Positions 17,201 through 62,669 of a stretch of 64,000 nucleotides of DNA are shown here, piece by piece (within the stretch, counting starts at the first letter, position 1; each line of letters opens with the position of its first letter). The DNA is taken from positions 62,001-126,000 of the forward strand of contig JBEWZL010000132.1 in assembly GCA_045837725.1 (NCBI GenBank), in the 5' to 3' direction. The position numbers and the translations under genes are program-made. Below the pieces are notes generated by a model. It saw only the letters and a list, made by a program, of their open reading frames with translations, ran no database searches and was not told where the DNA came from. The stretch comes from Vermamoeba vermiformis (Eukaryota).

Positions 17201-20200
17201 GTGAGGATTGAACAAGGACAGAGGATTGCTCAACGAATAGCCAGTCAATGCCAAGACACTCTCGTCGACCACAATCACGCAAACTTCAGCGTTTTCCTGC
17301 GGCTCGTTCTTGGCATTAGCTACGTGCACGTTGACCACGGCTTGTGAGCCAGGCTTGTACGATGCTTGGCTGGTCGTAACATCGACCTTCAACTCGTCAG
17401 ACTTGTTGACAATGTTGATGTTGGCGAGGCCTTTAGCGAAGCAGGGGCGCGGAGGAGCGGTCAAATCTAGCACACCCGAGTTCAAGGCACGAGGCTTGCA
17501 ACCCATGAGATCGACTTGAATCTGCACGTTAGGCTGCCAGTCTTCTTTGATCGGGAACTTGACTGTCACAGAGTCCTCGACAAGTTTGAAGCGTTCAGTG
17601 TGCACGACACCTTCACACAACAGCGTTAACAAGCCTTCAGCGGGCTTGAACGGAGATTGAACGAGCAACTCTCCCGTAGTCTCTCCATCGAATGGCGAGT
17701 ATGTCTGTTTGTCGGGGATGATGATAGCCTCTTCTTGGGTCACTTTAGTGATCTTAGGCGTTGGCGTAGCCTTTGCACCAGACACGTTGAAGGTGACCTT
17801 GGTCTCATTGCGCAGCTCTATTGTTATGATTAGAATCAAGTCCGATAGTCACGTGCAGTGTCTCTTACTTCGACCGTCAGCTGTGATGAATTCAAAAGTA
17901 TACTGGCCTCCGTCTTTAGGGAAGTACTCGTAGACAAGTGGTTCGCTCTTCGAGACCAACTTGACGATCTTGCTGCTGCTCTTTTCAACTTCGCGAGTCA
18001 AACCTTGTTCGTCTGAAAACACTTGTTAATCACCATTTCTTGATAGTCCTTTGCACTTACCCTTCTCGTCTTGAACCCACTTGCGAGTCTGTTTGATCCA
18101 GAAAGGCACGCCTTCCTTAGCCTTGCCATCGATGTCGGTGACAATAACGTCCATAGGGAACAGATCGTGAGGCTTGCCGTAGGCTCGCTTGACATTGACA
18201 CCAAGGTAGTACTCCGAAGGGTGTAACAGGAAGCTGTGAGACCGTTAGAAAATTGAATTGCAGGTCAATGTCGTAATACCTTGTCGAAGTTTCACGGGTT
18301 TGGTAGTTAAGATCGGTGATGGCAGCAATAGCTTTCAGGGTCTTGGGTGCCTTCAAATTACCCGCGTAAACGATCTTCACTTCGTGTTCACCGTTCACAT
18401 CGGTCTTGCCATTCAATTCATTGCCTTCTTCGTCGGACTCTTCGTCGGATTCTTCGTGATCAAGGAGTGACGGGCGCAATAGAGGTCCACCTTTAATCAT
18501 CGGACGAGGAGGTGGAGGAAGTCCAAAGCTTGGTGTGACTGATCGAATACCAAATATTTGGCCACGAATGTCATCAAAAGTGAATGGTGTGAAGGTTGGA
18601 CGATCCATCCACCAGGGCTTGACGTCACCAAAAGAGAACTTGGACCAACCAGGCGGCGAGTAGAAAGCGTCGCTGTCTTGCAAAGTCCACTTGACCTTGG
18701 CGTCAGACAATCCTCCACCTGCAAAGTAGGTCGCCTTGGCCTTGGCAACAGCAAATCCTCCTTCCTTGCTTGCAATGTGATTGGAGATTGGAACGTAGCT
18801 CGAGCTCACTTCGTACTCGGGTCTGCGGAACTCTTCGACTTTGAACGTGTGGGTGTATGTAATAGAAGTGCCCACGGTAGTAAAAATCACTGACGCAGTG
18901 CCCAAGTTCATGTTGTCAGGCAAATTCAACTTGAGGTCAAAGGCACCAAACTTGTTGAATTCGAGATCTCCCTTGGAGATTTCCGCGCCACGTGGATCAC
19001 GGAAGACGTACGTCATCTTGCCGCTGCCATAGGTAGGCATGATTTTTCTTGTTTCGGATCGTTTCAAGTGTCGCAAGTAGCCCTTGATGTGAACCTCTTC
19101 TTTGGGTCTGTACAACTTTCTGTCATCAAACACGAACCAGTTGTTGCTCTCAAAGCCAGTCTTTGTGTAGTTAACGGGAGTAAATGCCACGTCATTGCCC
19201 TTCGAGCACATGACAATGCCCTTCGCTGCGCCATTGAACTTGGGGAACAAGATGATACCATCGTCATTTGTCTTGCCTGTAAACCGACGTTAAATCACGT
19301 GTCAAAAAAAGCCACTAGCTCGTACCTGAGCAATTGTTTGGAGCGCTAATTTGCACACCACTGGCAGGCTTGCCGTCTTCCAGCATCGAGGCCCACACGA
19401 GCAACTCTCCGCTGCCCTGTGAGAAGATAGTGTCCACGCACATGCGCGTAGATTGTATCCACGAGTACAACTTGGGGTGGTAGTCTTCGTACTTGTCATA
19501 GTAGCTGCTGTGGAAAACTCGCCAAGCGGCCTCAGTAGGCTCCACTCTGACAATCAACTGACCCAAGTTTTCATTAGGGAACTGCAAGTGAGGTCTCAAG
19601 TCAATCATCAATTGCTTGGGGACACCTGGTTCAACGTCTGTCTTGATAATGGTCTCGTGGACAACCTTTCCAAATTTGGAAACATGCGGACGGCGATTGT
19701 TGAACTCCGCAGTGGCAGAGAAGTACTCGGTGGGAGCGACTTGGTACACTTTGACGTGAAGCTCGTGATAGCCGACAACAATTGGGGTCAAAGTCGGGTG
19801 AGTCTTAGGATCAAGCACGACCAAGTTGGACGGGCCAGCTAATTACAAACCGTTAGACATTGCACGAAAATATAGGAGATTGATTTAGACTTACTAAGTG
19901 AGTCGTAACCGGGGCCAACCTTCACGTCGTACGTGTTAGCACCAGTCAGCTTTTGCTCGTAGACGTCGCACAAGGCACGATCAATGGTGACTGTGTACTT
20001 CTTGCTCGGGTCACTATCATTCTCGATAACGAGACACGATTGTTGTCTCATGAGGCCATAAGAACTGCCAAAGATCCCGACACTAGCAGTGTTAGCGGAG
20101 TTATTTTCAATTCTGAAAACAGCTTTCTTCAACGGAGGTGTGATCTTGACCATGCTCTCTTTGAAAGTGCCCATATCAATTGGATTCGTGAAGTAAATGT

Positions 20201-22467
20201 GCCAAGTAGCACGAGGATGGTAAGACGAAGGTCTGTAGGGCTGGTCAACACTAAACAATGCCATGGATTAGTAAGGCTGAAACAAAGTTGAATTATTAGT
20301 ACGTACCCGAACGGAGGATAAGTGGAGAATGAAGCACTTTGGACGGTGGTAGATTTCAACGGGCCTTCTAAGGACGGGACTGACGGACCAACATTGATGT
20401 TGTAAGTCGTGTTAGGCTTCAAATCTGTCTTGAATCTGAAGCCGAAGAACGTCGAGGCATTGATCTCGTTAGTGTCGTATCTGCGCGCAGCCAATGCGGC
20501 AAGTGTTTCTTCGGTGGAAAGCAATTGCAACTCCGGGGCGTTAGAAACCCTAGAGCTTGTTAGCGCGTTGAAATAAATCAAAATGAAAGACGTACTTGAC
20601 GACTTTGATAACCTCAGCCGGATTGATCCGTTGATCGAATCTCAAGACGATTGTCGGGCCCAAGCAATCGAGTCGCTGGCTGTAGCTGCTTGGAGAATGC
20701 GTCCACATGTTGTCAGAGAAGTTCGAGATGTAATGCACGTTCTTCAAAATCGGTGTGTTGGTGGAAAACTTCATGACAAAGTCTTTGGCCAGAACACCGT
20801 TCACCATCGACTTGGTGCCAGCAGGGATCTTAATGGAATAATCCGTGGAGAACGGGAATCGGCCCTCAGCCTCGAACTGCAATATAGTAGTGCCCTTCCA
20901 GACCCAACGACCGGCAATACCTTGAGGCTCCAATGTAGCAGGCACGGGGACTGAGGTAAGTTAGAACTAGATAGAATAGCTTATGCTGCACTTACTCTCT
21001 TTCAAGTCAGCGATGCTAGCAACAGGAACCATAGGCTGGTTGAATGTGATTGAAGCCACAGGCACGGGAACATTGAGAGATCCCTTCGGCGAGTGTCGTA
21101 AGATTTGAAGCTCGCCACCAGTCTCTTCTTTGTTGAGCTTCTTCGCCTCTTCCACGTCGATCACAACCTCGGGGCGAACTAGCACGTGTCAATATAATTC
21201 GTGAATAAGACTCTGTTGTCACGTACCTTCAGGTGGAGGAGGGAACGGTTGGTTGATTCGCTCGCCTGTCTTAGGAGCCTTCAACGAAGTTTCTATTGTC
21301 GGGTTAGTTTTCTAAAGTTCAGTCTTGTGGTAATGAAGACGCACCTCTCACAGCGAAGTTCTTCTCGTCACCCTCTGCGCTTTGAATAGGAGCAGCACGG
21401 TTCAATAACTTCTCCAAGGACTCTGCGTTAAGAGGTTCCATCGGCTCGACAGGTTGGTCAGTCTCGGGCTGCTCTTGTGCGTCTTGATCTTCCTCGGCAT
21501 CTGCCTCAATGTTCGCTGCCTCGACAGCGTCAATCTTTGTCAACTTGGTAGTGAAGGGCACGAGCTCAGTATCTAGCTTAAAAGTGAGTCCGAGTGGCGA
21601 ATGCATCACGTGAGTTGACGTTACCTGGCAAGTCATCAGGCTCTTCAGCACTAGAATCTTCGTCTTCCTCATCGATGCGAGGTGACTTAGCCTCGTCCTC
21701 GACAATGGCATAAGGAGACTTGGTGACATCTGCACAAAGTGTCAATCAATGTCACATCTGTCAGTTTACCTACCCTTGGTATTCCAGTTTGCCGATACTT
21801 TTAAGTTCTGCTTTTCTTGAATAGTATTATTTTTGTTTTCGTTCTCTTCCGTAGGCTTTATTTGACCTTCGCCGTACTGGATTTTGAGTTGGAGCGAACC
21901 TTGAACTGAATCTTTCTTGTTTGGGCGAGAAGATAACGGAAACCAGTCTTCAATTGGCGATTTGCTAAGCAAATCTTTGTTGATTTTAATTGTAACTTGA
22001 CCCTGGAAACGGTCAGATTCGAGAATCCGCAACGAGATCATAATATCTTACCAAAAACTTGTCAGCAAGCACTTTCTGCTTATGCCACAAGCTAATCTGG
22101 ACACCAGAAAAATCCGACGCATCACTAAAACGATTCAGTAAGCACCAAAAATTGAAATCGATTTTTCATGACGCTTACAAGCTTAGTTTTTCGTTCCAAC
22201 TCGGTGTTTGCGTCTTCTTAACAGGCTCTAAAAATTATACAATGGTTAATCAAAAAAATCTATTGCTGCTAAAGGAGTTTTACTTGTCGTGCTTGGCTTG
22301 CCGATCGCCTTGCCGCCAGCATCGAGCACTGCAACTACGACGTAGGCATCGTATTTGGACTTAAGATCCTTTCCAGCGACCGCTAAATTAAGAATGAGTC
22401 TCTTCTTCGGGATGTGGTAAATATCTTACGCACCTGTTACTTGGAGTTGCGTAGCTCCTTTCTCCAT
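14219..22467 (-). CDS. Bacterial-type alpha-2-macroglobulin with N-terminal C2 domain, multi-exon
   Basis: C2 motifs (PSWNE, ADKFLGQV, WFPL, GSLQLKIQY); Ig-like ITFNQPMV; MG2 FDDRKLYRPKEEVHIKGY; VEEFRRPEYEV; VVDESVLALTGY; VRSNF..LPDSLTKYRV; PRFLNLGD; thioester CSEQ (15995-16006); WNNTQEN; PPAKAEEMYSPEIFGRS. Confidence 0.9.
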
Positions 22468-43769: not shown

Positions 43770-43950
43770 TGGTTGGGTAGGAAAAGGTACGGAGGTGTGG
43801 AGGGTATTTACAGAGGCTAGGGGAATTAAAGTTTATGTGTTATGTGTTATGTGAGGTTTTTTCGGCCGAGAAAATTTCGGCCAGGGCGGGGCCCATCGCC
43901 CTGATTGGCGAGTTCAGCTAAGCTGGGGTCCCGTCCTGATTATGTAGTAT

Positions 43951-46900
43951 TTATTTATATCTTGTTTTAGCCAATATTTCTCGGTCTATCGTTTTCTTCA
44001 GCTCGTCGAAGAAAGTCTTGCATCTGTATCTGTAGATTTTGCGGAAGAATTTTATCTGGGTATGTATTAGTTTAGTACTTAGTTCTATTAAATTTTCTTC
44101 ATCTTCTATAAATTGTTTGAGGTAATTATACGTGTATTTTGGAAGGAAACCGGAAACTCCGGCAATATTATTTATTTCTTCTTTTTCAAATTCTGCCGCG
44201 TCTCTAAAGTTTCTATTCTTTATTCTATACCATCTGCATGGGTCTCCTGGGGGTATTTTATATTTTTCGAGGATGCCGTCTATTTCGTGGTCGAGCTTTC
44301 TTCTAATTGGTTCGTACTCTCTGCACGCTGCGATTATATGTTTGGTATCTTCTGGTTTTTTGCAATGTACGCATTGGTTATTCGTGTATATTGTTTTGAG
44401 TCGGAGATTCTCTCGGTCTGTCCCTTCTTTCCTGATCTTGCGCATCATCTCTACCTTGCCGTTCAGTTGTTTATTCCTTAGTTTGAAAATGAAGTTTACA
44501 TCGTTGTTGGTAAAGTCCTTGTTATGCAGGTAGCTGGTTTTATGCGCTGCTGCTCGGAGTTTTCTGACGTCTTTAAGTTTAACAGTCTCGTGGTGTCTTC
44601 GTTGTTCTTCTAGTTTGATTAGGTTGCTTAGTTTATCCGTTTGTATTGTGTCATCAATTGTAAATATGTATTTTCTGGCGAGTCTTGGCACTACACCAAT
44701 TCTCATTAATTTGAGGCTTTGTTTGGCTAGTTGATCTGCCGCTTCGTTGCCTACGATTATTCTCGAGTAGTTGTCTCCGTATTTATCTTGTAGGGTCTTG
44801 AGTTTTTCTTTGAGTTCTTTTAGCTTTTTGGGGTCTTTTTGTAGTTTATTCATTTTATCGCCGATATGGCTAGGTACGTGTTCGTAGCTTACTCTAATTT
44901 TCTTTTCCGCGATCGTTGCCTTTATCCTGTTGATTACAGCTTCGTATTTTGGTGGTGGTCTTTTCTTTTTATTCGTTAGTACGTGTATCGCGCTCGTGCA
45001 ATCTGTAAAGATTCTGAGGTCTTGGCGTTGATGTGTGTTGATAGCATATTCTATAGCTTCTAGTTCCGACTCGAACGAGTCTTGTATATCGTTGGTTCTG
45101 CGGGCTGTGTTGAGTTTTGAGTTGCGCGTAAAGAAAACACCGAATCCCGCTTTATTTTGTTCTTTGTCCCATGAGCCATCTGTCCATACCCACGTCTCTC
45201 CATCAATCGTTATAAGGTCTTCTTCAGTGGTTTCGGCGTTTATTCTGGTTCTGCTGCGCTCCTCGGCTAGTTCTTTGTCAATGATTTCGTTCTTGATTTG
45301 GCCGTTATCTGTGATTATTCTCCTGACTGCTAGGTATTCTTTATTCGTTAATGGGCTACTGCTGGTTAGGTTTAGATGGAAGCGCGATTTAATTAGTTTG
45401 GTTTGAGTGGAAATATCTCTGGTGTATTTGATATTCATGTTTCGTAGTTTATCTCGCAGCGGTAACGAGTTAATACTTTGTAATAAGGGGCTGCCGTTTT
45501 CATTGATAGTGATTCCGACCTTAAATCGGTGGCAGCATTTAATTGCATTTATTATAATGTTGTCGTTGGGGTTAATGTTTTGTATTTTGGTTTTCGGTGA
45601 CTCTAGTTTATTGATGTTATCGATATCAACTGCCTTCATTCTGTATTCCAGGATGTCGGATAATATATCATTTCTGTTGAGACCTCTTTCGAATATGAAG
45701 TCTGCGAATGTTCTGTAGTTGAGGTCTTCTACGTTGGGGACGTTCAATCCACCTTCGTCTCTACTTATTGAGAATTGTGCATTGTTGAGGTTTTGTCGTA
45801 TCGGAATCGACCTCTTGAGGCACGTGAATATGCTATCTGATATTTTGTTGAGCGTTTTAGTTGGAAATATTATGTTATGAAATGGGTATTGTATTATTGG
45901 CAGTATTACTCGTGTTATCAGTTCGGCTTTGCAGTTCACCGATAGGTTTTTTGTTCGAATTATGGCTAGTTTATTTAAGAATTTCTTTTGGAAGTGCTCA
46001 AAGGTTTGCGTTAGGTCACCTTCGATATTCATAGGTATGCCGAGGTATTTGTAGTTCTCGTTCGCTTTCAGTGTTTTGATGTTTTTATTGTAGAATTTAA
46101 TCTCTTTTCCTGTCGTTTCATTCGCTGTGAAGGCTGACTTATCGTGGTTAACGAGTATGTTGTAGTACGTCGAGAATTTTTCCAGATCCGCACTCATTTC
46201 TGTTAGCTCTTTGAATGATTGTGCAATTAGTGCAATGTCGTCGGCGTATGCGAGGGTGGGTATTCGTATTGGTTTTTCAACATTGAGTACGTATCCGTCG
46301 TACTTGTTTTCGATATGTTTTAGAATTGGATTAATAAATATTATGAATAGTAGTGGTGAGAGTCCGTCTCCTTGTTTTACTCCTTTTTTGATATCGATCG
46401 GTGCAGACAGCTCTCCGTTTACAATTACCGCTGCGGTATTATCAGTGTACATGTTAATTATTAATTCGATAAAGTTATGGTCCACTTTATAGTATTCCAT
46501 AACCTGTTTAAGTCCCCAATGTTCTACGCTGTCGTAGGCTTTACTAAAATCGATATATTCTAGGTGTAGCTTTTTGGTTGTTTTATTGTCTTCGATGATA
46601 TTTTGTAGTATTGAAATTTGTCTTGCCGTGCTCATATTGCTTCGAAACCCTGCTTGGAATTGCGAAAGTAATTTATTTGTTTCGAAGTACTCTTCGAGGC
46701 GGTCTTTTATAATACTGCTGAAGATTTTATATTCTACCTGGAGTAGGCTAATCGGTCTGTAGTTGCCCGGGTCTCCTTGGTCGCCTCCTTTGTGGATTAA
46801 TGAGATCAGCGATTCTTTCCATTTGGTTGGGATCTGTTTTTGTATTAATATAGCGTTGAATATCTTTTTGTACTCTTTCAGTACGTCTTTTGAGCAGTGT

Positions 46901-48041
46901 TTAAGTATGTCGATCGGTATTTTATCGCTACCTGGTGTTTTATGGTTTGCCATTTTAGCGATTGTCTCTCGAATTTCTCGCAGTGATATCTTACGCATTA
47001 GGTCAAGGTTATATTCGATGTGAATGTCTTTTTCGAGCCATACAGGAGTATCGGTTCTTGGGGGGGTAGACGACGTGAGTGTTGCTTCCCAAAATGAGCG
47101 CACTTGGTTGCGGATGCCTTCTTTGTCTGTTATTGTTACGTTGTTTTGTTTGATGAATGGGATTGTCTTGTTGCTTGTTAGAGTTTCGAAGATTAGTCCG
47201 ATATATGTTTTGAAATTTGTGTCTCGTAGGCTAAGTCGTCGTTCAACTCTTGAATTGATATCATTTGTTTTCATTTGTTTTATCCTCTTATTATATTTTT
47301 TAACCTCTTCGCGTTTTCTTTCTTTGATTTCCTCTGCAGACGCATTCGTGTTGATGTTGCATTTCCCGAGTATCTTTTTTAGTTTCTTTTCTCTCGATGG
47401 CGATGCTAGCATATATATTTTGTGTTTAAGTCGGAGAGCTTTCAGTATTTGATGTATATTTCGTTTGATGTTGTTTAGTTCTGCATCTTGTTTGTACGGT
47501 TCTCGTTTGTTGTTAGATTTGAACTTTTGGAATATTAATTCGTGCCATTCGTTAAGTTTTTCGTTTATTCTGGACATTGGTTCGGTGCCTGTCAAGTGGA
47601 ATCCGCTGCTTTCGTAGAGGGTTTGTAGCTTATTTGGCGTTGATTTTTTATCAAGGTTGTGGGTATCGATTTTTTCTCTCAGTTCTTGGCTTGTCGCGCT
47701 ATCTTTGACTGTTGTAAAGCTGTATTCGAGTATGATTGCGCGGTGATCGGAATGTATTCTGTCTTGTTTCCATATATCGCAGTTGATAATACGTCCTTTT
47801 TTGTTGGTAATGAAATAGTCTATCCTGGATCGTGTTCGATAGATCTCTGGTGACGTTTCGTCTTTGTTTTCTCTTTCGAACGTGAATCCTTTCCGTAATG
47901 GGTAACAATATCGGAAGCAATCGGCGAGAGCGCGTATATCAAAGTTGTTCGTTACCGTTTCGCAGTGGTTTGCATGTTTAGAGGTTTTATTGAATTTCGG
48001 ATCTGATTTTTTAAGGCGGATATTTAGGTCGCCTCCTATTA
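43951..48041 (-). CDS. Retrotransposon polyprotein, 3' part: C-half of APE endonuclease, RT, RNase H, CCHC
   Basis: GGDLN, SRIDY, SDH; KTPGSD, YRPISLL, DFSKAYDSV, GVKQGDGLSP, YADD (46237-46248), YKYLG; TDGS/ELEA/FTDC/HVPSH/GNEAADQLAK; CVHC..H..C; frame open from 48041 to stop. Confidence 0.95.
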
Positions 48042-48117
48042 GGGACGAACTTTTAATGGTTTGAAAAATATCCCATGTTCAAGATGTAAGGTGTACACCT
48101 TACACTACCAAAATAAA
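48042..48117 (+). repeat. Left TIR of MULE-like element
   Basis: GGGACGAACTTTTAATGGTTTGAAAAATATCCC...TGTAAGGTGTACACCTTACAC matches the reverse complement of 54440-54517. Confidence 0.88.
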
Positions 48118-48124
48118 GTATCAT

Positions 48125-50783
48125 TTATTTCAATTGATTTTTTTGATTTCGCTTTGCCACTTGATATACAATCTTTTTCACATATCCCTTGGTATATTTT
48201 TCATCAAAAATGTAATGTTGCAACCAGTACAACAATCCTTGGGATATTCCTTGTCTTTCCTCAGACAGTTTCTTTAAGCCTTCAATACACAGCAGCACAT
48301 CTTCTTCTTTCACCTTTGGGTAGTTTGCCTTGCGGGAGGTAAAATGGGAAAGCTTTAAGTCTTGGAATGTCTTAAATGTTAGCAACTGGGCAAGAGATGT
48401 TCTGGAGTTTAACTGAAAGGGGGTGGTCAATTTCAGGGACAGAAGCAGTTGAAGTTTCAGGTGAGAGTGCTGTTCTGCTTGATTACGCATTTCATTGCTA
48501 TTCAATGGAATTAGAATTGTAACAATGTGATTGGTAGGTACCTGTAGTTATAAAGGAATTGCAAATGGGTTACAACAGCAACCAGAAGTTCAAAAGAGCA
48601 AGAACCACTGTAAAAGGGAGATGATTTCTTCAAGTATTTGTGCCAGTTTTCATTAACTGAAGTGCCCTTTGAATATTCTTTCAATGAAGCTGAATTGAGT
48701 ACAGCATCAAGGTAGCCCGCAGTAGGGTTTAAAAAGTTATTCACTGCCCCAAGTACTTTGGAGGTAATTATTGAAGGATAATTAGCAGCTGTTATAGTGT
48801 CTGAACCACTATTGCAATGTTAGTGTATAGTGTACACCTTACATATTTGACTAACCTTAAAGTGGCTGCTAGATTCTCAATAAATAATTGCATCTGTTCA
48901 TCTCTATCTTGGTGAGCTTTACTGTATTTCTCAAGCCAGACATTCAGCATAGTAGATAACTTTGCACTGTTTGGGTCAGCTGAATTACAGAGCTGTGCGA
49001 AAATGCCACTGAGTTCTTGCTTTGCTGAATAATAGTCTGTACATATTAGATAACATAGTAAGAATTGTATAAGCATACCAGGATGATTGTGTGCCATTAC
49101 GGAGTCAATTCGATGTATTACATGCCAAATATCTTGACAGGTCTTTGGCATAGTTTTGGCAGAGAAAGAGTTTAACCAAGCTGCTTTAACAAAGTTTTGA
49201 TCTGTTGATATCAAAATTTAGGTAAAGTATTAATTTATGAAATGTTCATACCTTTTCTGCTGTCATCAGTAAACACATGTGTGGTTGTGGGTTTGCTGTG
49301 GAGACTCCAAATATCATCAAACTCGTCTTCCATATATTTGCGCTCATCTGATGGAACTAATTTGCACACAAGCACTTGTCCTCTTTCATTGAGAATCGAA
49401 AGCAAAGAAGCCTTAATCTGTATCTGGAGTATAGGTTACACCATACACCGCGGAATTTCTTTAATGAACCTACTCTTTTTTTGTTCATTGTATCCATTGC
49501 TGAGAGAGCTGATGCAATCTTGTATGTATGATCAACTCGGAGCACTGTACCACTCTTTGCAATGATTTCATTATTGTAGTGATTGAAAAACTCTTTTTGC
49601 TTGCTGTACTTGAAAAGGTACAGAGCCTCCAGCATTTGACTATTGATAATGTACTTCTGTTCCAAAGCATCGACAATCACATCCACATCAGTTTCAGCAA
49701 AGACCTGTGTCAGAAACCCCTGCAATTCATTTAAATATTATTAGTGTATAGTGTACACCCTACGCTACATCTCGTTCTGGTACTGTTTCTTACCATTCGT
49801 ATCTTGTGAGACAGGTTTGATATCCAAGTGCCTACAATAGTCTTTGCCAATGCAGAGAAGTTAAAGGAGTGGGATGGAATTGTCATAAAGATATAATCCA
49901 GAAATTTGGTAGTAACAATTGTTCTTTCAAAAGACACCACTTGCGGAGTAATGCTATAGTCTTTGAGATCTGACTGAAGTAAAGAAAATATAATGTAGCT
50001 GTGTGTGCTGCATTGATACTTTTGGAAAGCCAATATAAAAGGACTTTCAGTATCAAAGCACCTTTCTCTGGTATCTTTTCCATAAAGCACAATATGACAT
50101 ACGTCTTTACCCTGAATAAAGTTAGAATTGAAAGTAATATGTTTCATTAGTACCTTATGGGATGGGCATTTGGTAGGCAAGTAGGTCAGCATATTGACTG
50201 GTTGATTTGCCCTCCACAGTTTCAGGTGCTCAACAGGCAAAACCGACTCCACCGTTGCTGCAAAGTGCGAAGAAGATGTAGCATAATGTTTTTCAGGGTA
50301 TTCGGCACTGTTGTGGATAGAGAGCTCTGCCAATTGTGAAACAACGTCTTCGGTGTAAGGAGTACCCTCTACATCATCGGCCGATTCTACATTTTTCTTA
50401 ATTTTTGGGGCTTTTAACTGTTTCTTGACTGGACTAATGACAATGTTGTGTGTTTTAAGCTTCTTCTTTTGTGCTCGCTCTGCTAAGAATGTTTGGTCCT
50501 GCTGCAGAGTTCTGCGTTGTGGCAGTGGATTCACATCTGAGTAAATTGTAAAACCATAATATTATTAGCAAAACAAATACATACCTTGTAAATGCATTTT
50601 AGTGGCTTGATGCTGCAGCAATTCTTTTTTGGAATTTTTTTGGATGTTGCAGATGCATCCTGTTCGGTAATTCCAAAGTCGGCAAACATAGGTTTTCCGA
50701 TGGTTGCCAGATTTACCAAGCACAATATATTGGTAGCTGGTGTACCCCGGTTCCTTGTTTTGTTCGACAATAAGTTGTTCCAT
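48125..50783 (-). CDS. MULE-like DDE transposase, multi-exon, N-terminal zinc-finger-like segment
   Basis: LRVDHTYKIA (D1), VFTDD (D2), QDIWHVIHRI (DxxH), GTSVNENWH (E); the exon joins I checked are in frame via GT-AG introns. Confidence 0.8.
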
Positions 50784-50814
50784 CTGATTTTATCGTTTTT
50801 ACACGAGCACAACA

Positions 50815-53800
50815 ATGCAAACGCGACTGCGTGCAAGAGCAACAAACCAAAACAAAAACAATAACAATAATTCCCTTTCCAAAAAAAGGGCACGAGACGA
50901 GAGTGAGATTGAGCAGATCGAGATCGCTAGCGAACAAGCCACTAGCAACAAACGGCAGAAAACAACAAAATCAAGTAAGTAATAATTTTGGTTGTAATTT
51001 TTTAATGCGGGTTTAAATAACGGTTTATTTTTTTGATTTTTCTCCCGCGCAAATTAATTTCTTTTTGTTGATTAAAAAACGGTCTGATCCAGAACACAGC
51101 AAGCACAGCAAACAGTGCTTCCCAAGTGGCTGAACGCGCTCCCCAAAACCCCGATATTGCAGGCGAACCCGGTAAGTGTAAATCTGATCACGTTAATTTT
51201 TAATACCCGAATCTAGGCAACACAGCTAACTCAACGCGCACCAACACTACAAATAGGGGTGCACAAGAACGCGAACGCGTTCCCCACGACCGCGATACTG
51301 CTGGCGAACCCGGTAAGTGTAAATCTGATCAGATTGAATTTTTTCTAACCGAATCTGGTCAACACAGCTAACTCAACGCGCAGTGACACTACGAATAGTG
51401 TTACACAACACCGCGAACGCGTTCCTGAAGACAGTGCTGGTGCAGGCGAACCCGGTAAGAGTAAATCTGATCAACTTAATTTTTATTGACTGAATCTGGT
51501 CAATACAGCTAACTTAACGCACAGCAACACTACAAATAGTGCTGCACAAGACCGCGAACACGTTCTGGAAGACCGCGATAGTGCTGGCGAACCCGGTAAG
51601 TGTAAATCTGATCGGATTGAATTTTTTCTAAGCGAATCTGGTCAACACAGCTTACTTAACGCGCACCAACAGTACAAATAGGGGTGCACAAGAACGCGAA
51701 CGCGTTCCCCACGACCGCGATACTGCTGGCGAACCCGGTAAGTGTAAATCTGATCAGATTGAGTTTTTCCTGACCTGAATCCAGCAACCACCACTGGTGT
51801 AAACACTGCTGCTGCTGGTATTATCGCCGCCAGCGAGTATACGCATGGGAGCAATGCTAGCCAGTGCATAAATCAGCCAGGTAAGACGTTTTTTTACTGT
51901 TTAAAAGTTCGTAGCTGATGTCACTAACCGATCGCGAATCCAGTTTCGACCGAACCAATGCCCACAAATGGTAGCAGTAGTCTATCAGATACTAATACGC
52001 GTGCTCCCGACAATTGCTATGGTGGTAGCGAAGCAGGTAAGTGTAAATCTGATCAACCTAATTTTTAATTAACCGAATCTGGTCAACACAGCTAACTCTA
52101 CGCCCAGTAACAGTACGAACACTGTTGTACAACAACGCGAACGCATTCCCGAAGACCGTGATAGTGCTGGCAAAGCAGGTAAGTCTAAATCTGATCAGCT
52201 TAATTTTTTGTAACCTGAATCTAGGCAACACTACCAATTCAATGTCCTCAAACATTGCGAATAGTGTTGCACAAGGCCGCGAACGCATTGCTGAAGACCG
52301 CGACATTGCTGGCAAAGCAGGTAAGTGCAAATCAGATCAGCTTAATTTTTTCTAACCTGAATCTAGGCAACACTGCCAACCCAATGCCCCCAAACACTAC
52401 GAATAGTGTTGTGCAAGACCGCGAACGCGTTCCTGAAGACCGCGATGGTGCTGGCACACCAGGTAAGCCAAAAGTTACTTGTAAAATACTTTGATCTAAC
52501 GTCAAATCCAGGCACAGCTGACACCAGTGCTTCCCAAGTGCACGAACTCATCCCCAATGCCCGCAATAATGATGCTATTGACAATGAACAAGCTCGTGAC
52601 ATTAGACAGCCCACTAGTAAGCCCAATGAGCAAGGTAAGTTGAACTGCCGATCTATGGACAACTTTTGAAATGTATCATTGACAATTATACGATTACAGT
52701 TAATACCGCGGCAGTACAGAACAACACCAACGAGCACACAGATCGTCAACAGGGGGTAGCAATAGCAGGTAAGTTTTTGTGTAAGGTGTACACTGTACAC
52801 CAATGCTGATTGGCTTGCAGGGGCAGCACCGGACTCTCTTGCTGCAAACTACAGTGACAGACCACGTAGAAACCGAACACTTAGACGTGGTGTGTGAAGG
52901 CAAAAACGTTGTATTACAGGATACTAATTCTTTTTCCCTGTTACATAGCTGTAGACACTGCTAGTGACGAGTCCTCAGAATCCAGCTCTAACAGCAATGT
53001 ACAGCAGGTAATTGAAGTTGGCGAAGATAATGAACAAGGGGACTTGCTAAAAGGTAATTCGTATCGGTAACCGGTGTACTCCTTACACCCTTTTATTTAG
53101 TTGTTGGGCAAACAAAAGAAAGCAGCGCAGATCAGTATGCTGCTGTTGATAATATTGTTGCTGTAAACAAAAACGATATTGTGGCAGTGTTGGGAGAAGA
53201 CAACGAAATTTGGTTTGCGAAAGTTGTCAAAGCCCCAAGAGCCAAGAACAACTTGGCAAAACTTACTGTTTCTTGGTATCAGTGTGAAGCACGGACGAGT
53301 TCGAACGCACTGTTAATCTCTCCAGAACAAAACCAGTCCAGCATAGAATTGGGGGCTATTTTGGATAAAGTTGCTTTCACAAAAATGCCTGGCAAGCAAC
53401 TTTGCATTGACAATTCAGAGTATCAGCGTGTTCAAGTTATTGGTACGTAATCAATTCCCTTCTAGCACTTGACCAATTACTGACCTTAATCTCAATACAG
53501 CAACAAAAATTACTGAGCAGCCAGACTCATCTGCAAAAACAAAACAAAGCCCGAAAAAGACTTCGAAAAAGAACAAGAACAAGGCAAAAAAGAAGAAGAG
53601 CAAAAAGAAAAACGCAAAAACATCCGCTGCATCGTAAGTGTACAGTGTACCCTTTACACCAATGTGTAACTTACTTTACACAGAGCTGCAATTGTTGAAG
53701 AAGATAGTGAGCCTGGCGCCAACATGCAAAACAACGCCAATGTTTCTAAAGTGCCACAAACTGCAGATGTTGATATGGGTGAGGTTGGTCCTGATGATGC

Positions 53801-54412
53801 TTCTGTTTCTTTTAGTTCTGCTGAGGAGGATGCCAAACACCAGTTTATGCACGAAACTGACGTTACTGTGGCATCGATTTATGATGTTAATGCTGATTCT
53901 TGTAAGTTTCTCTTCATATTTTTATGGATCTAATCTTTTTTTTGTTGTAGGGGATGTTAAGCTCGCCAAGTTTTCAAAATGGCTTTTGCAATATGGTATA
54001 TTCAACAAAGATTATATGGACAATGGCAAAACGTCTGGTGGCTCAACAGCACTGCACTTATATTTTTTTTACCGTATGTACAGTGTACACCGCACACAAC
54101 TGTCACTCACTACTTTTAGTGTTATCTGCCTTCAGGGACCACGTACTTCCCACTCCTGCTGAAAAGCGTGCTACTTTGCTTTCTGCAGGTATTACAGAAG
54201 ACAATCATAAGCACTACACTCTACTGTGCCACGACATGACACTTGAAGGAAATCCTCTGGTGCACCGCCCCACTGCCTTTACAAAGAAGACTATTACTTC
54301 TGTTCATCGCTGGTTAGTGCAGTACTCATTGATCAGAATTTCTCATGAGCCTGGTGCCAAAAGAAATAGGGTGTTTGTATGTATACCACCTTTGCGTCCG
54401 ATTTGGCAATAA
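50815..54412 (+). CDS. Transposon accessory protein: NLS, tandem 32-aa repeats, BAH-like domain, Lys-rich tract, C-terminal globular domain
   Basis: MQTRLRAR..KKRARD..KRQK first exon; NDIVAVLGEDNEIWFAKVVK..LTVSWY; KKNKNKAKKKKSKKK; final exon ends CIPPLRPIWQ* just before the TIR. Confidence 0.7.
51093..52510 (+). repeat. Tandem array of about 10 x 142-bp exon+intron units
   Basis: GTAAG(TGTAAATCTGATC)-type donors at 51172, 51313, 51455, 51596, 51738, 51881, 52037, 52179, 52321 and 52463. Confidence 0.9.
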
Positions 54413-54439
54413 AACCTGTTTTACGTTTATTTGGTGCAA

Positions 54440-54515
54440 ATTTTTTATTGTTGGTGTCAGGTGTACACTGTACACCACGAAAACGGGATATTTCTCAAAT
54501 CGTTAAAAGTTCCCC
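54440..54515 (-). repeat. Right TIR of MULE-like element
   Basis: Reverse complement reads GGGGAACTTTTAACGATTTGAGAAATATCCC...TGTACAGTGTACACCTGACACC. Confidence 0.88.
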
Positions 54516-57500
54516 CCTCCTATTATTATATGAGAGTTTGTATTTCTGTCGATAATTTTATCGATCTTTTTAAGAAAGCGTTCGTAGAATGCTTTCTTTT
54601 CGGTTTTATTTGACGTTGCCGGACCGTAAACATTTACTATTGCAAGCGTCTCTTTATTTACTTCAATGATCAAGATTATGAAACGCTTGTATTTATCTTT
54701 GATGATCTCTTTAATAAATGGTTTCCATTTTACATTGAAAGCAATTGCGATCCCGTGTTTACCATTTTTTGGCGGGTTGATCCAGTTGATGCGGTCTTCT
54801 TTCTCGGTTTCGTTTATGGTAGTATCATTCATAATCTTTTTTATTAGTTTTTCTTTTCTCTCTTGGACGATGTCTTTCGTAGTGCGATTGTTCCACTCAA
54901 TTGCAACTTCATTGTGTATTTGTTTTCTACACAGGTAGTCTTCGGCAGTAATTTTCGTTTCTTGAATGAGATAAAAATCAATTTCATTGTTCCTTATAGC
55001 TTCGACGATATCTTGTAGTTTGTCTTCGGCACCTCCGTTGATATTTTTCGAAATTAGTCTAATATTATGTTTATGATCTTCAGGGAAATACCACGCATCT
55101 TCTTTTTCGTCCTTATCATCGTAGTCATGCGGTAGCAGTTCAATTTCGCTGTCATTTTCCGGATGTGACCATTGGATCTGAAACTTAAACGGGCTTTTTT
55201 CTTCCATAATTCTGCCTTCGTAGTATTGATCACTGAATTTTATTTTCACTTGTTTACCAAGCCATGTTTTTGTGTCGGGATTGGGATAGGATATTTGCGG
55301 ATCGCCTCCGATTAAGCCAATCTCGGCTTTTAAACAGACTTGGTTGTTAGTGATATCTATGGTGCTATTCATATTAGTTATCATCTTACCATCTTTGAAT
55401 AATTTAATGCATTCCGGTGGTAAGTTAATTCTTTTTGAGCATTCATTACAGATCTCCTGTATCGCGATCTTTGTGTAATGCGTTTTAATATTAATCTCCT
55501 CGTTGTCAAGTGCTACTTTAATATTATTTCCAATTTTTTCGCTACTTTGTTTAGGGTTCTCGGCGCGTTGGGGCTTTGTCTGCTGGTTTCGAGATGGATC
55601 TTTAAGTTTTGGTCGTAATTTTGGTTTTATTTGTGAGTGGTATATTGTCGGTATTATAATAGTGTTTTTCGATAGTGTTATAAGTATATATAATACCTTT
55701 AGACTCAGTCGTCTATAATTTTTTTTGGATCGTGGTTTAACAATTGTGATAATTAATATGCAATTTATTTCGTTTATAAATGTTATTATTAAAGTGATAC
55801 ATGCGGTGAATAAGATTATAATTATTAATATTTTAAGTGTCGAGGTGTGTTCGTTTTCATTTTCTCTTCTCGGCGATCTTTCGTGCAATCTAAATAGTTC
55901 TATAATTAGCGTACACACTATTACTATTTGGTATGTCTTATTTACCGATTCAGCGTATTCTCTTGGTGTGAAAATATCGAAAATGTGGCCACGGGTGAAT
56001 CCGATCTTTCTGTGGAAACGTTTGATTGTCGCGACGTCCATCTCACTGTCACAGTGTACTTGTACGTACTCTCCTTTGCGTAGGCCGTCCGATTTTGGTA
56101 TATATACTCGTACTACTTGCGTTTTTGTCTTCGAGATTTGGCCTTCTAAGAATATTTTCAATTTGCTTGCTTTGATGTTGTATGCTAATTTTGGTGGAAT
56201 TGGGCCCATCCATAACGTTAGATTTTTGGGATGACTGATCTCGAGTGAGTATTTTGTGCCGTTGATGATGATCGATGTACCGTTGGTTGGTATTATCTTA
56301 TCAAGTTGTTGTTCGTCTGCATCGAACACAATTAAGCACTTCTCTCTTGTAGCGTTGAAATCGTCGAGAAACCATTTGAAATACGGTTTGGTGGGGAGCT
56401 TAGTTTGAACTTGTTGCTGTACTTCGTTTCTATGTCCTAATGGTACTGATATAATAATCGCTGCTCGATCAAGGACTATCGCTTCTCCTCTTGGTGGTTC
56501 TGTGATAATTGTATGTCCAATCGGGATAAGAGATCTGATCTCAGTTCTCGCTTGTTCGGAGAAGGCACACCAGTAGGTAGTTTTGATATTGTTCATAAGG
56601 ACTGTGACGCTGCGACTTATGTCGATTTTGTTTTCGATGTTGCGGATTCTTGAGTTGATCGTGGTTAGTTGGGACTGTGAGATTTGTTGAGCTCCGATCC
56701 AGAAATCATTGTCATCATCTCCGATTGAGAGGAAGTCAAGTAATGTTTGTTCTTCCATGTCGATGTCGTTATCGTTCGTTGTTTTTTCGGTTATTCCATT
56801 CGTGTTGTTTTCTAGTTGGGATCCGTTGTTGGGCAGATGCGTAGTTAAAGGAGGCTTAGTAGTGTTATTGTTGTTGTTGATAACTTCTTGGTTGGTTTGT
56901 TCAGTATATTGTGCGTTGTGTTCTTTTGGTTCGTTGCTTGTTACTTCGATCTCTTGATCGGGTGCATCGAGTGTCTGGATGACGTTGTTGTTGTTGTTTG
57001 GAGCTCCTATGTTGTTTTCATGGTCATTATAGAAGTTCATTATTTCTGAAACGATATTGGTTGTCTCTTCGACTGATGCGTCTTCGATCTCATCGTGGAT
57101 GTTTCCTCCTTCCGTTGATGGTGTTGTGAATTGGTTTACGTTGAGCGCTGCTTTAAACCGTTTATTGGGAGATGAGCAATTTGAGCTCGGGTTGCTTCTT
57201 TTGCTCATTAGTACAGTTTGAGAATAAATTAGATTTAAGATCAGCTTACTATTTATATTTTTTTGTTCACCTCTCTTGTGATTAGTTATATCGCCTATGA
57301 GCTTTATTTCTGTGTTTCTTTCTTTTTGTGATGTTGTGTTGGTGTAAGTTTCGATCGATGTTTCAGGATGTGTTCGTGTTCGGGCCGTTTGTGCTTCTAG
57401 AAGGTTTTCCGTTTGTGTTAAGCTGATACGATGGCTTAGTAGTGATCCATTTATTATCGTAGGGGTGATTATAAGACATATTTTGGGTGTAATTTTGGGA

Positions 57501-57820
57501 TCGGGTTCAGATGAGATTGGTTCAGGAAATTTTTGTTTATTTATGTTTAGAGTAATATACATTAGCAGAATAATTAAGAGTGTTTTTAAATTGTATATCG
57601 TGTTTTTCCAGTTCTTTAGGCAGTTTGAAACTGCGGGGCCAATGTTTTTTAGAGTGCTTTGGCGTGCACGGTTATGTTTATATTTGAGTCTTACTTGTAA
57701 TAGTTTTTTGCGTGGAATTTGTGTTTTCGGAATGTTATTTTTTTGGATTTGTTTCGGATTTTGTGGGCTAGTATCATGTGTGGATAATAGGTCTATTAAC
57801 AATATAAATATAGCAAGCAT
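54516..57820 (-). CDS. Retrotransposon polyprotein, 5' part: hydrophobic leader, RRM-like, TM segments, ubiquitin-like, Tudor-like, N-half of APE
   Basis: First in-frame ATG at 57820, 52 nt from the element 5' end; stop-free to IIIGG; SKNING, LIQETK, GIAI and IVNVYGP APE motifs. Confidence 0.85.
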
Positions 57821-58027
57821 TTTTGTTTGTCGTATATTCTCTCCTCTCGTCTCTCTCCTATGCCGGTCATCCGGGGAATTAAAGTTTACTGGGCAGCGCA
57901 GCTTTTGTGTTTGATTCTCCGAAGGATTTTCTCGGAGAAAAAAAGAAATCTCCCGTGGAGGATCTCGCTCGAAAACTATCACTACAAATTTTGATTTACA
58001 CAAATAGAGCATCTGTGTATATCAAGA

Positions 58028-58978
58028 TGAGTAACGGCACGGAAGTAAAGCAATTGCAAGAGCAGATCGCACTTTCAAAACAAGAGAACAAACAGTTACG
58101 AGATACGCTCGAGCAACTCGCGGTAATAATTAAAATGTCTATTATACAATTTTTTAACATATTTTTGCAGGCAAGGAAACTATTGGCAGATTATTCTTTA
58201 GGTATAAACTCAATTCAATGATTTTAATTGAATTATTTTTAAACGTGAATTAATTTGTACCGCCTTACAGTTACAGATAAACGCGCCATTCCTTGCGGAT
58301 TATCAGCTGTACATATTGTAATTCGAAATGGCAAGCAATGTAATTTAGCAACAAAATGTATCGTTCAAGACGATCCAGTGCACGAAGATCTCGTCAAAGT
58401 TGAAGGCCAAAGTAAGAAATTTTATTAATTTAATGCAACAATACTAATTTAAAATATTAGTGTTTCGAGTATGGAGTCCATTTCGCAGCAAATTAGCTGC
58501 AGCCATAATCACCGCTAAAATGAGCAAGTTACCGTTGCATGCGGGCAACAAAATTATGATGATTGGTGGATTGCAAGACACCGCGCATTTGTCAGATATT
58601 GTACAAAAACACGGATTTGTATATTGCGTCAAAAGTGGACTGCCGTTATCAATGCACAAAAATTTATCAAAGAGATCCAACGTAGCGCTAATAGACGAAG
58701 ACAGCCGATATCCAGAACGATATAAAAGTGAAGTGAAGCATCAAATAGACACTATTATAGCCGATATTGGTGATGCGAACGGAATCGATAGTTTTGGCGC
58801 GAATATAAGACAATTTTTGAAAGCCAGTACGAGGTTTTTTGTCGTGATCAGATCGAGCGAAGAACAAAAAATGAAAGAAGAGTTAACGAAGCGACATTAT
58901 TGTAATATAGAAGACGTACTATCATTAACTCCTTTCGATGAGGATTACAAGCTATTTATGGGCACTATTACGAAATAA
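58028..58978 (+). CDS. Divergent fibrillarin-like protein with N-terminal coiled coil and no GAR domain
   Basis: RVWSPFRSKLAAAI, HLSDIV..GFVYCV, EDSRYPERY, IDTIIADI, FLK and LSLTPFD align by eye with the fibrillarin MTase core. Confidence 0.8.
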
Positions 58979-61637: not shown

Positions 61638-62669
61638 TTAATAATTATTATAGTTATAATAAGAGCGGCGCTTCATTCGTTGTTCAGCTTGCTTGACGTG
61701 TTCGCGCGCAAAGTCGATCATGTGCTCGTTGTACTGTGCTCGCTTGCCCTGTGATGCGTTAGTTATTTATTGTTATAATTACGATATATAGTAATTATCA
61801 CGTACTTCGAATGTGCACCCAAACACTGAGAACGGACACGTCATTTCGATTATTTGACATTCCTTGTCACGGTGATGATCTTCGCTTGATCGTGTAATTG
61901 ACTGTTTGCAATGGACACACTTCATTGGTAGTAGCGGACAAGTATAATCGAGATGTTCCTAATGAATATATTTTTTAAATTGCTTGTGGAATTGACAACT
62001 TACGTAATAGTCACTCAAAGCTACAGTCAATTTGCAGTACTGACATGCAATTGGTCTTCTTTTGCACAGAGTCGTTTGATGCTCTGCCAGACTCACTCGC
62101 GTTACTTGATAGCCGCAATCCAAGCTACAATCGGAGCAATTACTAAATATGGCAATATCCGAAAAAAAACTTACGAGCAATCAACATAAGCATATGGACA
62201 AGACCTATCTAAATGATCATTTATCGTTCCTCTGGTTAGTGCAACGTTACATCCGTATTTTAAGTTTGGACACTTTGCGGGAAGTTCATCCACCATTCTG
62301 GTTTGGATTTGCGTTAATTATAAAATAATAGTTTAATATTAAACTAACGCCATTTAATACCTTTGAATTGGAATATTTTTTGACAAATCTTGGGAATATA
62401 ATCGTTGACGACAAGAGGGACAAGTTCCTTTGTTGTTAATCCACTTCAATACACATTCTTGTTCGAAGTTAAGTAATTAGTAACAAAGATAAATTAATAA
62501 ATCAATAAAATTCTACGGGAAAACAGTGTGTCCGTTAGATTATTTATTTAATTTTTATTTTTTTCTCAGATGACAGCTTACCCTTGCAGTAGACCTGATG
62601 ACAACAAAATGTTTCATGAGCATTATTAAAATGATCTTGGCAAATGCCGCAATCTAAATTAGCAGACAT
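61638..62669 (-). CDS. RING + TRAF-type zinc finger protein
   Basis: CGICQD..CCHQVYCK|ECVLKW..CPSCR; CPNLKYGC; repeated CxxC..H..C fingers; CPFSVFGC. Confidence 0.85.

Follow-up and report, generated by a model that had tools for sequence, protein, structure and literature searches.

A standing question about long interspersed nuclear elements (LINEs) is how many molecules of an RNA-binding chaperone and few molecules of the enzyme can be obtained from one LINE RNA. PMC3894237 describes two answers to this question, which are the use of two cistrons with inefficient re-initiation, or the loss of open reading frame 1 (ORF1) together with skipping at a 2A peptide. According to the same paper, the single-ORF LINEs that encode an apurinic/apyrimidinic endonuclease (APE) and a 2A sequence, which include Ingi/L1Tc and others, are devoid of ORF1 functions and carry the 2A sequence near the N-terminus (PMC3894237). 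Here we describe a different arrangement in the amoeba Vermamoeba vermiformis, found on contig JBEWZL010000132.1 of assembly GCA_045837725.1. The window, by which we mean the whole 64,000-nt stretch that was analyzed (positions 62,001 to 126,000 of the contig, numbered here from its first nucleotide), contains on its minus strand a LINE with a single reading frame of 2461 codons, which is split by an inserted element with terminal inverted repeats (TIRs).

The LINE shares with the RNase H-bearing APE-type LINEs the order of APE, reverse transcriptase (RT) and RNase H followed by a Cys-His motif, as well as a target site duplication (TSD) of the variable-length kind, a simple-repeat tail and a structured 3′ untranslated region (UTR). 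Unlike those elements, it has one ORF instead of two, the region ahead of its APE also holds RNA recognition motif (RRM)-like modules and candidates for a ubiquitin-like and a Tudor-like module, and its best database relative is just 33%–34% identical. Its nearest group is presumably I/Tad1/LOA/R1/Ingi. With the 2A-bearing single-ORF LINEs it has in common one long ORF, which poses the same question of how one frame can yield several products, but it differs from them in retaining a probable RRM-type equivalent of ORF1 and in lacking the NPGP sequence. No NPG, PGP or NPGP, as would be part of the 2A motif D-x-E-x-NPGP, was found anywhere in the 2461-aa ORF. As NPGP is missing, the element does not belong to the single-ORF APE LINEs of the known kind, which are ORF1-less and 2A-bearing. 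The 2A-less layout with an RRM-like region is an unusual variant.

A LINE interrupted at the APE G-D-x-N motif

Two long minus-strand ORFs meet the ends of the inserted element. The first, P0001 (54503..58021, 1172 aa), has the C-terminal sequence ...NSHIIIGGGNF, followed by a stop, while the second, P0002 (43951..48078, 1375 aa), includes the sequence ...SSLIGGDLNIR.... When positions 48042-54525 were excised in silico, a single 2461-aa ORF was obtained on the minus strand, which started with the ATG at 57820, ended with the stop codon at 43951-43953, and read ...NSHIIIGGDLNIRLKK... across the join. The point of insertion is directly ahead of the D in the G-D-x-N motif of the APE, and the interrupted motif aligns with TGDLN in the relative P0035 and with TGDFN in the relative P0037. 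To compare the frames, stop codons were counted in 13 bins of 600 nt along the LINE. The ORF frame had no stop before the true one, whereas 6–25 stops per bin were counted in each of the remaining frames on this strand, which shows that the openness of the frame is not a by-product of an A-rich strand.

The insert is flanked by a perfect 8-nt TSD, TCCTATTA. The identity between the two junctions extends over 10 nt (cctcctatta, 48032-41 versus 54516-25), as it consists of the TSD plus the end of the element, and it is 10 rather than 8 nt long because the element terminates in a run of C. On the plus strand, the left junction reads ...cgcctcctat/ta/gggacgaac... and the right junction reads ...gttcccccc/tcctatta/ttat.... 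It is extremely improbable that these junctions are an assembly chimera, because a mis-join would not produce a TSD, TIRs and a restored frame together, while here the matching TIRs are bordered by an 8-bp duplication without mismatch and the excision restores the 2461-aa frame to the base. Nothing was found that speaks positively for a chimera. The data confirmed that a transposon is nested inside an otherwise intact LINE. The nesting as such is ordinary, and the insert alone is what inactivated this copy of the LINE.

The LINE, which is about 7.55 kb long when the insert is left out, is itself bounded by a TSD of 16 nt (TAAACTTTAATTCCCC on the minus strand), with all 16 positions identical between the two copies. 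The first three bases of this duplication (TAA) could just as well be the last bases of the (CACATAA)n tail. Terminal repeats were not seen, as the ends of the LINE were not paired with each other among the best 25 of 62 inverted pairs or among the best 20 of 42 direct-repeat families. The RT matched the RTs of R2 (1e-32) and of human L1 ORF2p (1e-23) in the PDB, to which it fitted about equally well, and both halves of the APE aligned to relatives in which the Pfam Exo_endo_phos match clears the cut-off. By its RT, its APE and the combination of TSD and tail, the element is a genuine APE-type non-LTR (long terminal repeat) retrotransposon; it possesses all the enzymatic domains that target-primed reverse transcription requires. 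A hairpin is located in the 3′ UTR just ahead of the heptamer-repeat tail, and the folded 3′ UTR suggests that the RT of this LINE recognizes its own 3′ end.

An initial annotation of this stretch had already described a recent insertion of a DNA transposon at the catalytic G-D-x-N motif of an otherwise intact LINE, with perfect TSDs on both elements. The scripted excision reproduced the nested insertion and the restored 2461-aa ORF, relatives could be aligned on both sides of the interrupted motif, and the duplications proved identical at 16 of 16 nt for the LINE and at 8 of 8 nt for the insert. The description of the LINE as otherwise intact also held, since Pfam detects its RT, RNase H and Cys-His motif and the catalytic motifs are readable. 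As to the limits given for the LINE, the element was borne out, while its left end has to be moved by one base, because the TSD reaches 43819.

The claim that the insertion was recent is supported by an estimate of divergence. Among the possible substitutions in the LINE ORF, 4.8% create a stop, and the probability that 7383 nt stay open drops to 5% at 0.85% divergence, which places the neutral divergence since the disruption of the 7.4-kb frame below about 0.85% (a 95% bound, in which indels are ignored). The perfect TSDs and the intact LINE frame, together with the open seven-exon gene inside the insert (see below), make both insertions look recent. The main use of the nesting is as a dating marker and as the means of a clean reconstruction of the empty site.

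The observations are best explained by a full-length, single-ORF LINE that was later split by a cut-and-paste TIR element, and we assign this explanation a probability of roughly 0.85. The LINE would have been inserted by target-primed reverse transcription, leaving the 16-nt TSD and the (CACATAA)n tail, and the three-base overlap of tail and TSD would fit priming by microhomology. At a later time the 6.5-kb cut-and-paste element would have landed at the G-D-x-N motif of the APE, three codons ahead of the catalytic Asp, splitting the ORF and killing the copy.

The single reading frame and its relatives

The proposed order of modules in the ORF starts with a low-complexity N-terminus and two RRM-like units, which would be the equivalent of ORF1p, followed by the hydrophobic stretch and the ubiquitin-like candidate, and then by the Tudor-like domain, APE, RT, RNase H and the Cys-His motif (Table 1). 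The ORF1-like region was modeled with AlphaFold2 (AF2), and in a Foldseek search the top matches of the model were tandem RRMs (Prp24, raver1, HuR, CPEB4 and PUF60), with E-values from 4.6e-3 to 8e-2 and none at or below 1e-3.

The relatives of the LINE are few and distant. A word-index search returned 32 relatives at E ≤ 1e-3, of which the best was 33% identical, and a phmmer search with residues 430–1172 of P0001 against 1.84 billion representatives returned 13 matches, 12 of them to the APE/Tudor part and one, P0042, to the ORF1-like region. Several relatives are encoded on contigs of 7.2–7.5 kb, which is the size of the LINE minus the insert. The relative P0005 (2291 aa), which matches 47% of the query at 34% identity, contains in one ORF an RRM_1 domain (residues 360–421, 21.1 bits against a cut-off of 20.7), an APE (710–962), RVT_1 (1327–1582) and RNase_H (1767–1928). 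Because its RRM is located in the same ORF as APE, RT and RNase H, and scores above the cut-off, P0005 supports the fusion of an ORF1-like RRM to APE-RT-RNase H as a family trait; this fusion had also been proposed in the initial annotation. The protein P0042 (548 aa) matched the ORF1-like region with an E-value of 3.6e-5 and 26% identity, and its frame continues past the RRM-like region and across a linker of its own with no stop.

The single ORF could alternatively be accidental, that is, particular to this copy or due to its A-rich composition, in which case ORF1 and ORF2 would really be separate in the family and no polyprotein would include the translated linker. Consistent with this alternative, the linker (residues ~700–830 of P0001) looks non-globular and hydrophobic, and the nearest relative has two predicted proteins, P0042 and P0035, between which this region is divided. 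Moreover, no stop interrupts the frame over 149 nt past the TSD-defined 5′ end of the LINE (57873-58021, minus strand), where about four stops would be expected by a rough estimate, so that openness is no proof of coding; this extension could be due to chance, or it could be what is left of a related sequence in the flank. On the other hand, composition alone is insufficient to explain zero stops in 2461 codons next to 6–25 per 600 nt in the other frames, P0005 has everything from RRM through RNase H in one 2291-aa ORF, and P0042 reads across its own linker. A two-ORF layout was not found in this LINE or in P0005, and we consider an accidental fusion improbable. The fusion of RRM to APE-RT-RNase H, together with the lack of 2A, means that either a giant fusion protein is at work or some other processing takes place. 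In the single-ORF explanation that we prefer, the LINE RNA would be translated into one polyprotein, in which the RRM-type half would coat the RNA, while the APE-RT-RNase H half would nick the target and copy the RNA from the heptamer-repeat tail.

Three further stretches, two of them candidate domains, separate the RRM-like region from the APE. The first is the hydrophobic stretch; weaker hydrophobic segments are also found upstream of the APE in P0005 and P0037, and not in P0042. The second is the 78-aa candidate ubiquitin-like segment. In a phmmer search of the PDB its second-best match was a redesigned ubiquitin (E 0.037), while natural ubiquitins were absent at E ≤ 10. Of its neighbors listed in the Atlas, those with a family name all belonged to ubiquitin, Rad60-SLD and TUG (0.87–0.90), and the 119–132 features shared with them are below the level typical of true members. 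The AF2 model (mean pLDDT 47) placed a helix and three short strands at ubiquitin positions, while the first hairpin was not modeled. There was no match to the Pfam ubiquitin family (PF00240), a BLASTP comparison with P0042 was not significant (best E 0.54), and ubiquitin was absent from the Foldseek matches of the AF2 model that covers this segment together with the Tudor-like domain, none of which reached E ≤ 0.001. The length and the hydrophobic spacing of the segment are reminiscent of ubiquitin. The L-x-G-G motif is the place where ubiquitin-type fusions get cleaved; such an end is present here as GLIGG (55304-55318), and P0035 starts with ...FKLRGGG at the matching place. We give about even odds that this segment is a ubiquitin-like domain.

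The odds are somewhat better than even that the third module, directly upstream of the APE, is a Tudor-like domain. The top Foldseek matches of its AF2 model were Agenet/Tudor domains (ADCP1, 53BP1, PHF1/PHF19, Spindlin1 and SETDB1), with non-significant E-values of 0.08–0.5. The Pfam family PTM_DIR17_Tudor matched with an E-value of 0.17 (12.2 bits, below the cut-off of 27.2), and the domain is conserved in P0035 (BLASTP 1e-10, 34% identity). No description of a LINE-encoded ubiquitin-like or Tudor domain was found in a literature search of limited coverage. We speculate that the ubiquitin-like joint might be cut by host deubiquitinases and that the Tudor-like domain might tether the enzyme to chromatin. 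If true, cleavage of such a joint by the host would add a third answer to those of two cistrons and 2A, and a chromatin-reader domain on the endonuclease of a LINE would be a counterpart of the chromodomains by which LTR elements are targeted.

A further RT fragment, which is 42% identical to the RT of the LINE, is encoded on a 462-nt contig (L001:172-405; Marinifilum breve scaffold_184). It was the one confirmed locus among 16 pattern matches in a scan of genome contigs, and it is probably eukaryotic DNA carried into a bacterial assembly.

Table 1. Positions of the features of the LINE and of the element inserted in it, in the order of the LINE from its 5′ end (window coordinates; MFE, minimum free energy; pLDDT, predicted local distance difference test)
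Feature	Position	Strand	Basis or remark
LINE TSD, 5′ copy, TAAACTTTAATTCCCC	57873..57888	-	identical to 3′ copy
LINE 5′ part: 52-nt leader, ATG 57820, N-terminal half of ORF to ...NSHIIIGG	54526..57872	-	
Low-complexity (N/T/K-rich) N-terminal part of ORF	56708..57820	-	no recognized domain; first 600-nt bin 0 stops versus 12–19 in other frames
ORF1-like region: short helix and two beta-alpha-beta-beta-alpha-beta (RRM-like) units	55922..56707	-	AF2 model, mean pLDDT 46
Strongly hydrophobic 40-aa stretch, transmembrane-like	55733..55852	-	Kyte-Doolittle maximum 3.14
Candidate ubiquitin-like segment, 78 aa, ends ...GLIGG	55304..55537	-	weak PDB, Atlas and AF2 leads
Candidate Tudor-like beta-barrel, directly upstream of APE	55085..55267	-	four strands in AF2 model, mean pLDDT 47
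APE, N-terminal part, ends at insertion site	54526..55066	-	Pfam Exo_endo_phos E 0.062 on half domain
Insert TSD, right copy, TCCTATTA	54518..54525		junction sequence
Inserted TIR element, 6476 bp	48042..54517		TSD and TIR alignment
Right TIR, holds palindrome copy 54454-54475	54441..54517	-	
Second candidate multi-exon gene, transcribed away from first	52600..54412	+	model unreliable; no Pfam match
Two arrays of 142-bp tandem units, mid-element	51132-51781, 52031-52467	+	each unit: GGTAAGT, CTAAC-like box, AG
Candidate transposase gene, 7 exons, 6 GT..AG introns of 41-50 nt, ~790 aa	48125..50783	-	ORF-maximizing model, junctions hand-curated
Left TIR, holds palindrome copy 48084-48105	48042..48118	+	
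Palindrome sites	48084-48105, 48823-48844, 49434-49455, 49744-49765, 50353-50374		
Palindrome sites (continued)	52779-52800, 53074-53095, 53638-53659, 54076-54097, 54454-54475		
Insert TSD, left copy, TCCTATTA	48034..48041		junction sequence
APE, C-terminal part (DLN ... SRIDYF ... SDH)	47716..48041	-	alignment to relatives
RT, YADD box	46033..46797	-	Pfam RVT_1 1.2e-37
RNase H	44845..45195	-	Pfam RNase_H 2e-12
C-terminal Cys-His motif (CxxC...H...C)	44320..44526	-	zf-RVT E 0.0014, 19.7 bits, under cut-off of 27.5; motif readable
3′ UTR, 115 nt, stable stem-loops and (CACATAA)n tail	43835..43950	-	MFE -36.8 kcal/mol, z -3.9
LINE TSD, 3′ copy	43819..43834	-	identical to 5′ copy

The inserted element

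The TIRs of the insert align without gaps from the first base of each end (GGGACGAACTTTTAA... versus GGGGGGAACTTTTAA...). They are about 77 nt long, begin with GGG and show 78% complementarity. By its TIRs and its 8-bp TSD the insert is a class II TIR element, and to this extent the initial annotation as a DNA transposon stands, while the homology to a transposase that this name implies was not shown by Pfam or by the searches described below. The insert matters less than the LINE, and it is notable for the placement of a palindrome in its introns.

The candidate transposase gene has no internal stop across its seven exons. Read by eye, its product contains VDHTYK, FTDD about 70 residues further on, CQDIWH and SVNENWH, and this order of motifs is typical of RNase-H-fold DDE transposases of the Mutator, hAT or KDZ kind. 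From these features we infer that the insert is an autonomous DDE transposon. In the Atlas, the nearest neighbors of exon 2 were DUF6729 clusters (0.93–0.94, with 171–187 shared features), followed by CxC4/CxC5 clusters described as associated with KDZ transposases (0.90–0.92). No mention of DUF6729 was found in a literature search of limited coverage. In the host, an ORF-maximizing model of a VIT-VWA gene in the window needs introns of 41–109 nt, so the short introns of the insert fit the host.

The superfamily of the insert is a candidate assignment, to a Zisupton-like or Mutator-like element, with hAT less likely. Like Mutator-like elements, the insert has a TSD in the range of 8–10 bp and long TIRs starting with G, and the order of D-x-T-Y-K, T-D-D, C-x2-H and an N-E-N-like motif, as read by eye, resembles the MULE (Mutator-like element) pattern. 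In contrast to those elements, none of the ORFs or exons of the insert matched the MULE or Transposase_mut families of Pfam. An assignment to hAT would fit the 8-bp TSD, but it was set aside, as there was no hAT match in Pfam for the ORFs and exons of the insert. According to PMC12730594, TSDs are 8 bp long for Zisupton and Dileera and 7 bp long for Kyakuja. The insert resembles the former two, which belong to KDZ, in its 8-bp TSD and its TIRs (PMC12730594), and also in the Atlas lead from exon 2 to KDZ-associated clusters. It differs from the Zisupton/KDZ group in that no ORF or exon of the insert had a KDZ, CxC or DUF6729 match in Pfam at E ≤ 10, a test that is weakened by the use of single exons.

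A 22-nt palindrome of the form GTGTAAGGTGTACACCTTACAC is strongly enriched in the insert. It had 24 matches in the window, where 0.67 were expected, and 23 of the 24 are within the insert, while the single match outside carries two mismatches. The 23 matches correspond to about ten sites, one of which is located 43 nt from each end, within the TIRs. Among the eight internal sites, seven are in candidate introns of 44–52 nt, in both genes, and one, which is degenerate, is in-frame in exon 2. There is some circularity in calling these introns, since the palindrome contains stop codons. Evidence independent of the palindrome comes from GTAAGT, GTTAGT and GTATGT donors, CTAAC-like boxes, YAG acceptors and the restoration of the frame. 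None of the host genes in the window carries the palindrome, which argues that it is neither a general intron feature nor a genome-wide introner. An introner-type origin of the palindrome-bearing introns was set aside, as 23 of 24 matches are inside the insert. The simplest reading is that the palindrome is a putative transposase-binding site, tolerated inside the element only where it is spliced out.

Several observations weigh against a full-length single-ORF LINE split by a transposon. No second copy of the LINE or of the insert was found in the 64-kb window. The TIRs are just 78% alike. The ORF1-like region of this copy had no Pfam or PDB sequence match, and its profile returned nothing from the PDB at E ≤ 10, so that its RRM call is a low-confidence one, with a mean pLDDT of 46 and Foldseek E-values no better than 4.6e-3. 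Ten raw ORFs and seven exon pieces of the insert matched no credible Pfam family (best E 0.014). In word-index searches for homologues, in which exon 2 and exon 3 were separate queries, exon 2 gave 779 candidates among longer proteins, none at E ≤ 0.01, and exon 3 gave 76 candidates, none at E ≤ 0.1. The Atlas recognition for exon 2 was low (1512), so the label of transposase comes from motifs read by eye and a low-recognition embedding lead. Finally, the exon models of the insert are ORF-maximizing and partly hand-curated.

The points concerning the insert also bear on the alternative that it is a mobile TIR element whose ~790-aa protein is not a DDE transposase, or that this copy is non-autonomous and was moved in trans. 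The protein without a Pfam family or a homologue at the exon level, the low recognition score and the unverified gene models are all in line with such an alternative. It is opposed by the D, D, CxxH and E-like motifs, which, as read by eye, fit an RNase-H-fold transposase in their order and spacing, as well as by the frame that is intact through seven exons and by the Atlas leads to DUF6729 and KDZ-associated CxC clusters. We consider this alternative possible, though rather unlikely. In the explanation that we prefer, the insert is putatively a well-bounded, apparently intact member of a transposase lineage missed by current profile libraries.

A more far-reaching proposal would join the features of both elements. 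In it, an L-x-G-G-ending domain cut by host deubiquitinases would free the RRM half of the polyprotein, the Tudor-like domain at the new N-terminus of the APE would read methylated histone tails and steer integration, and the insert would represent an undescribed lineage at the superfamily level, with the transposase-binding palindrome placed within its own introns. It is improbable that all these parts hold together.

The middle of the insert contains two arrays of 142-bp tandem units, which could represent exons and introns repeated in tandem or just a repeat. Splicing of the units would leave in-frame units of 93–102 nt, encoding a repeat of about 31 aa (...RERVPEDRD.AGEPGK), and there is no ATG on the strand of the arrays between 51005 and 51845. 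In the second candidate gene of the insert, an exon at ~53103-53430 appears by eye to encode a small beta-rich domain of the reader type.

Surroundings of the LINE in the window

The gene content of the window is eukaryotic, and besides the VIT-VWA gene it includes an F-box/LRR gene. A tRNA scan and an Rfam scan of the window each gave no match and hence no hint that a small-RNA gene was the target of the LINE. A divergent ORF with a fibrillarin fold (58448-58978, plus strand; Pfam Fibrillarin 7e-29) starts about 560 bp past the 5′ end of the LINE, which places the LINE in the upstream region of this ORF. Farther away, at 14219-20641 on the minus strand, a gene with long exons encodes an alpha-2-macroglobulin-like protein, in which the MG2, A2M bait region, A2M and bacterial-type MG10 domains were detected.

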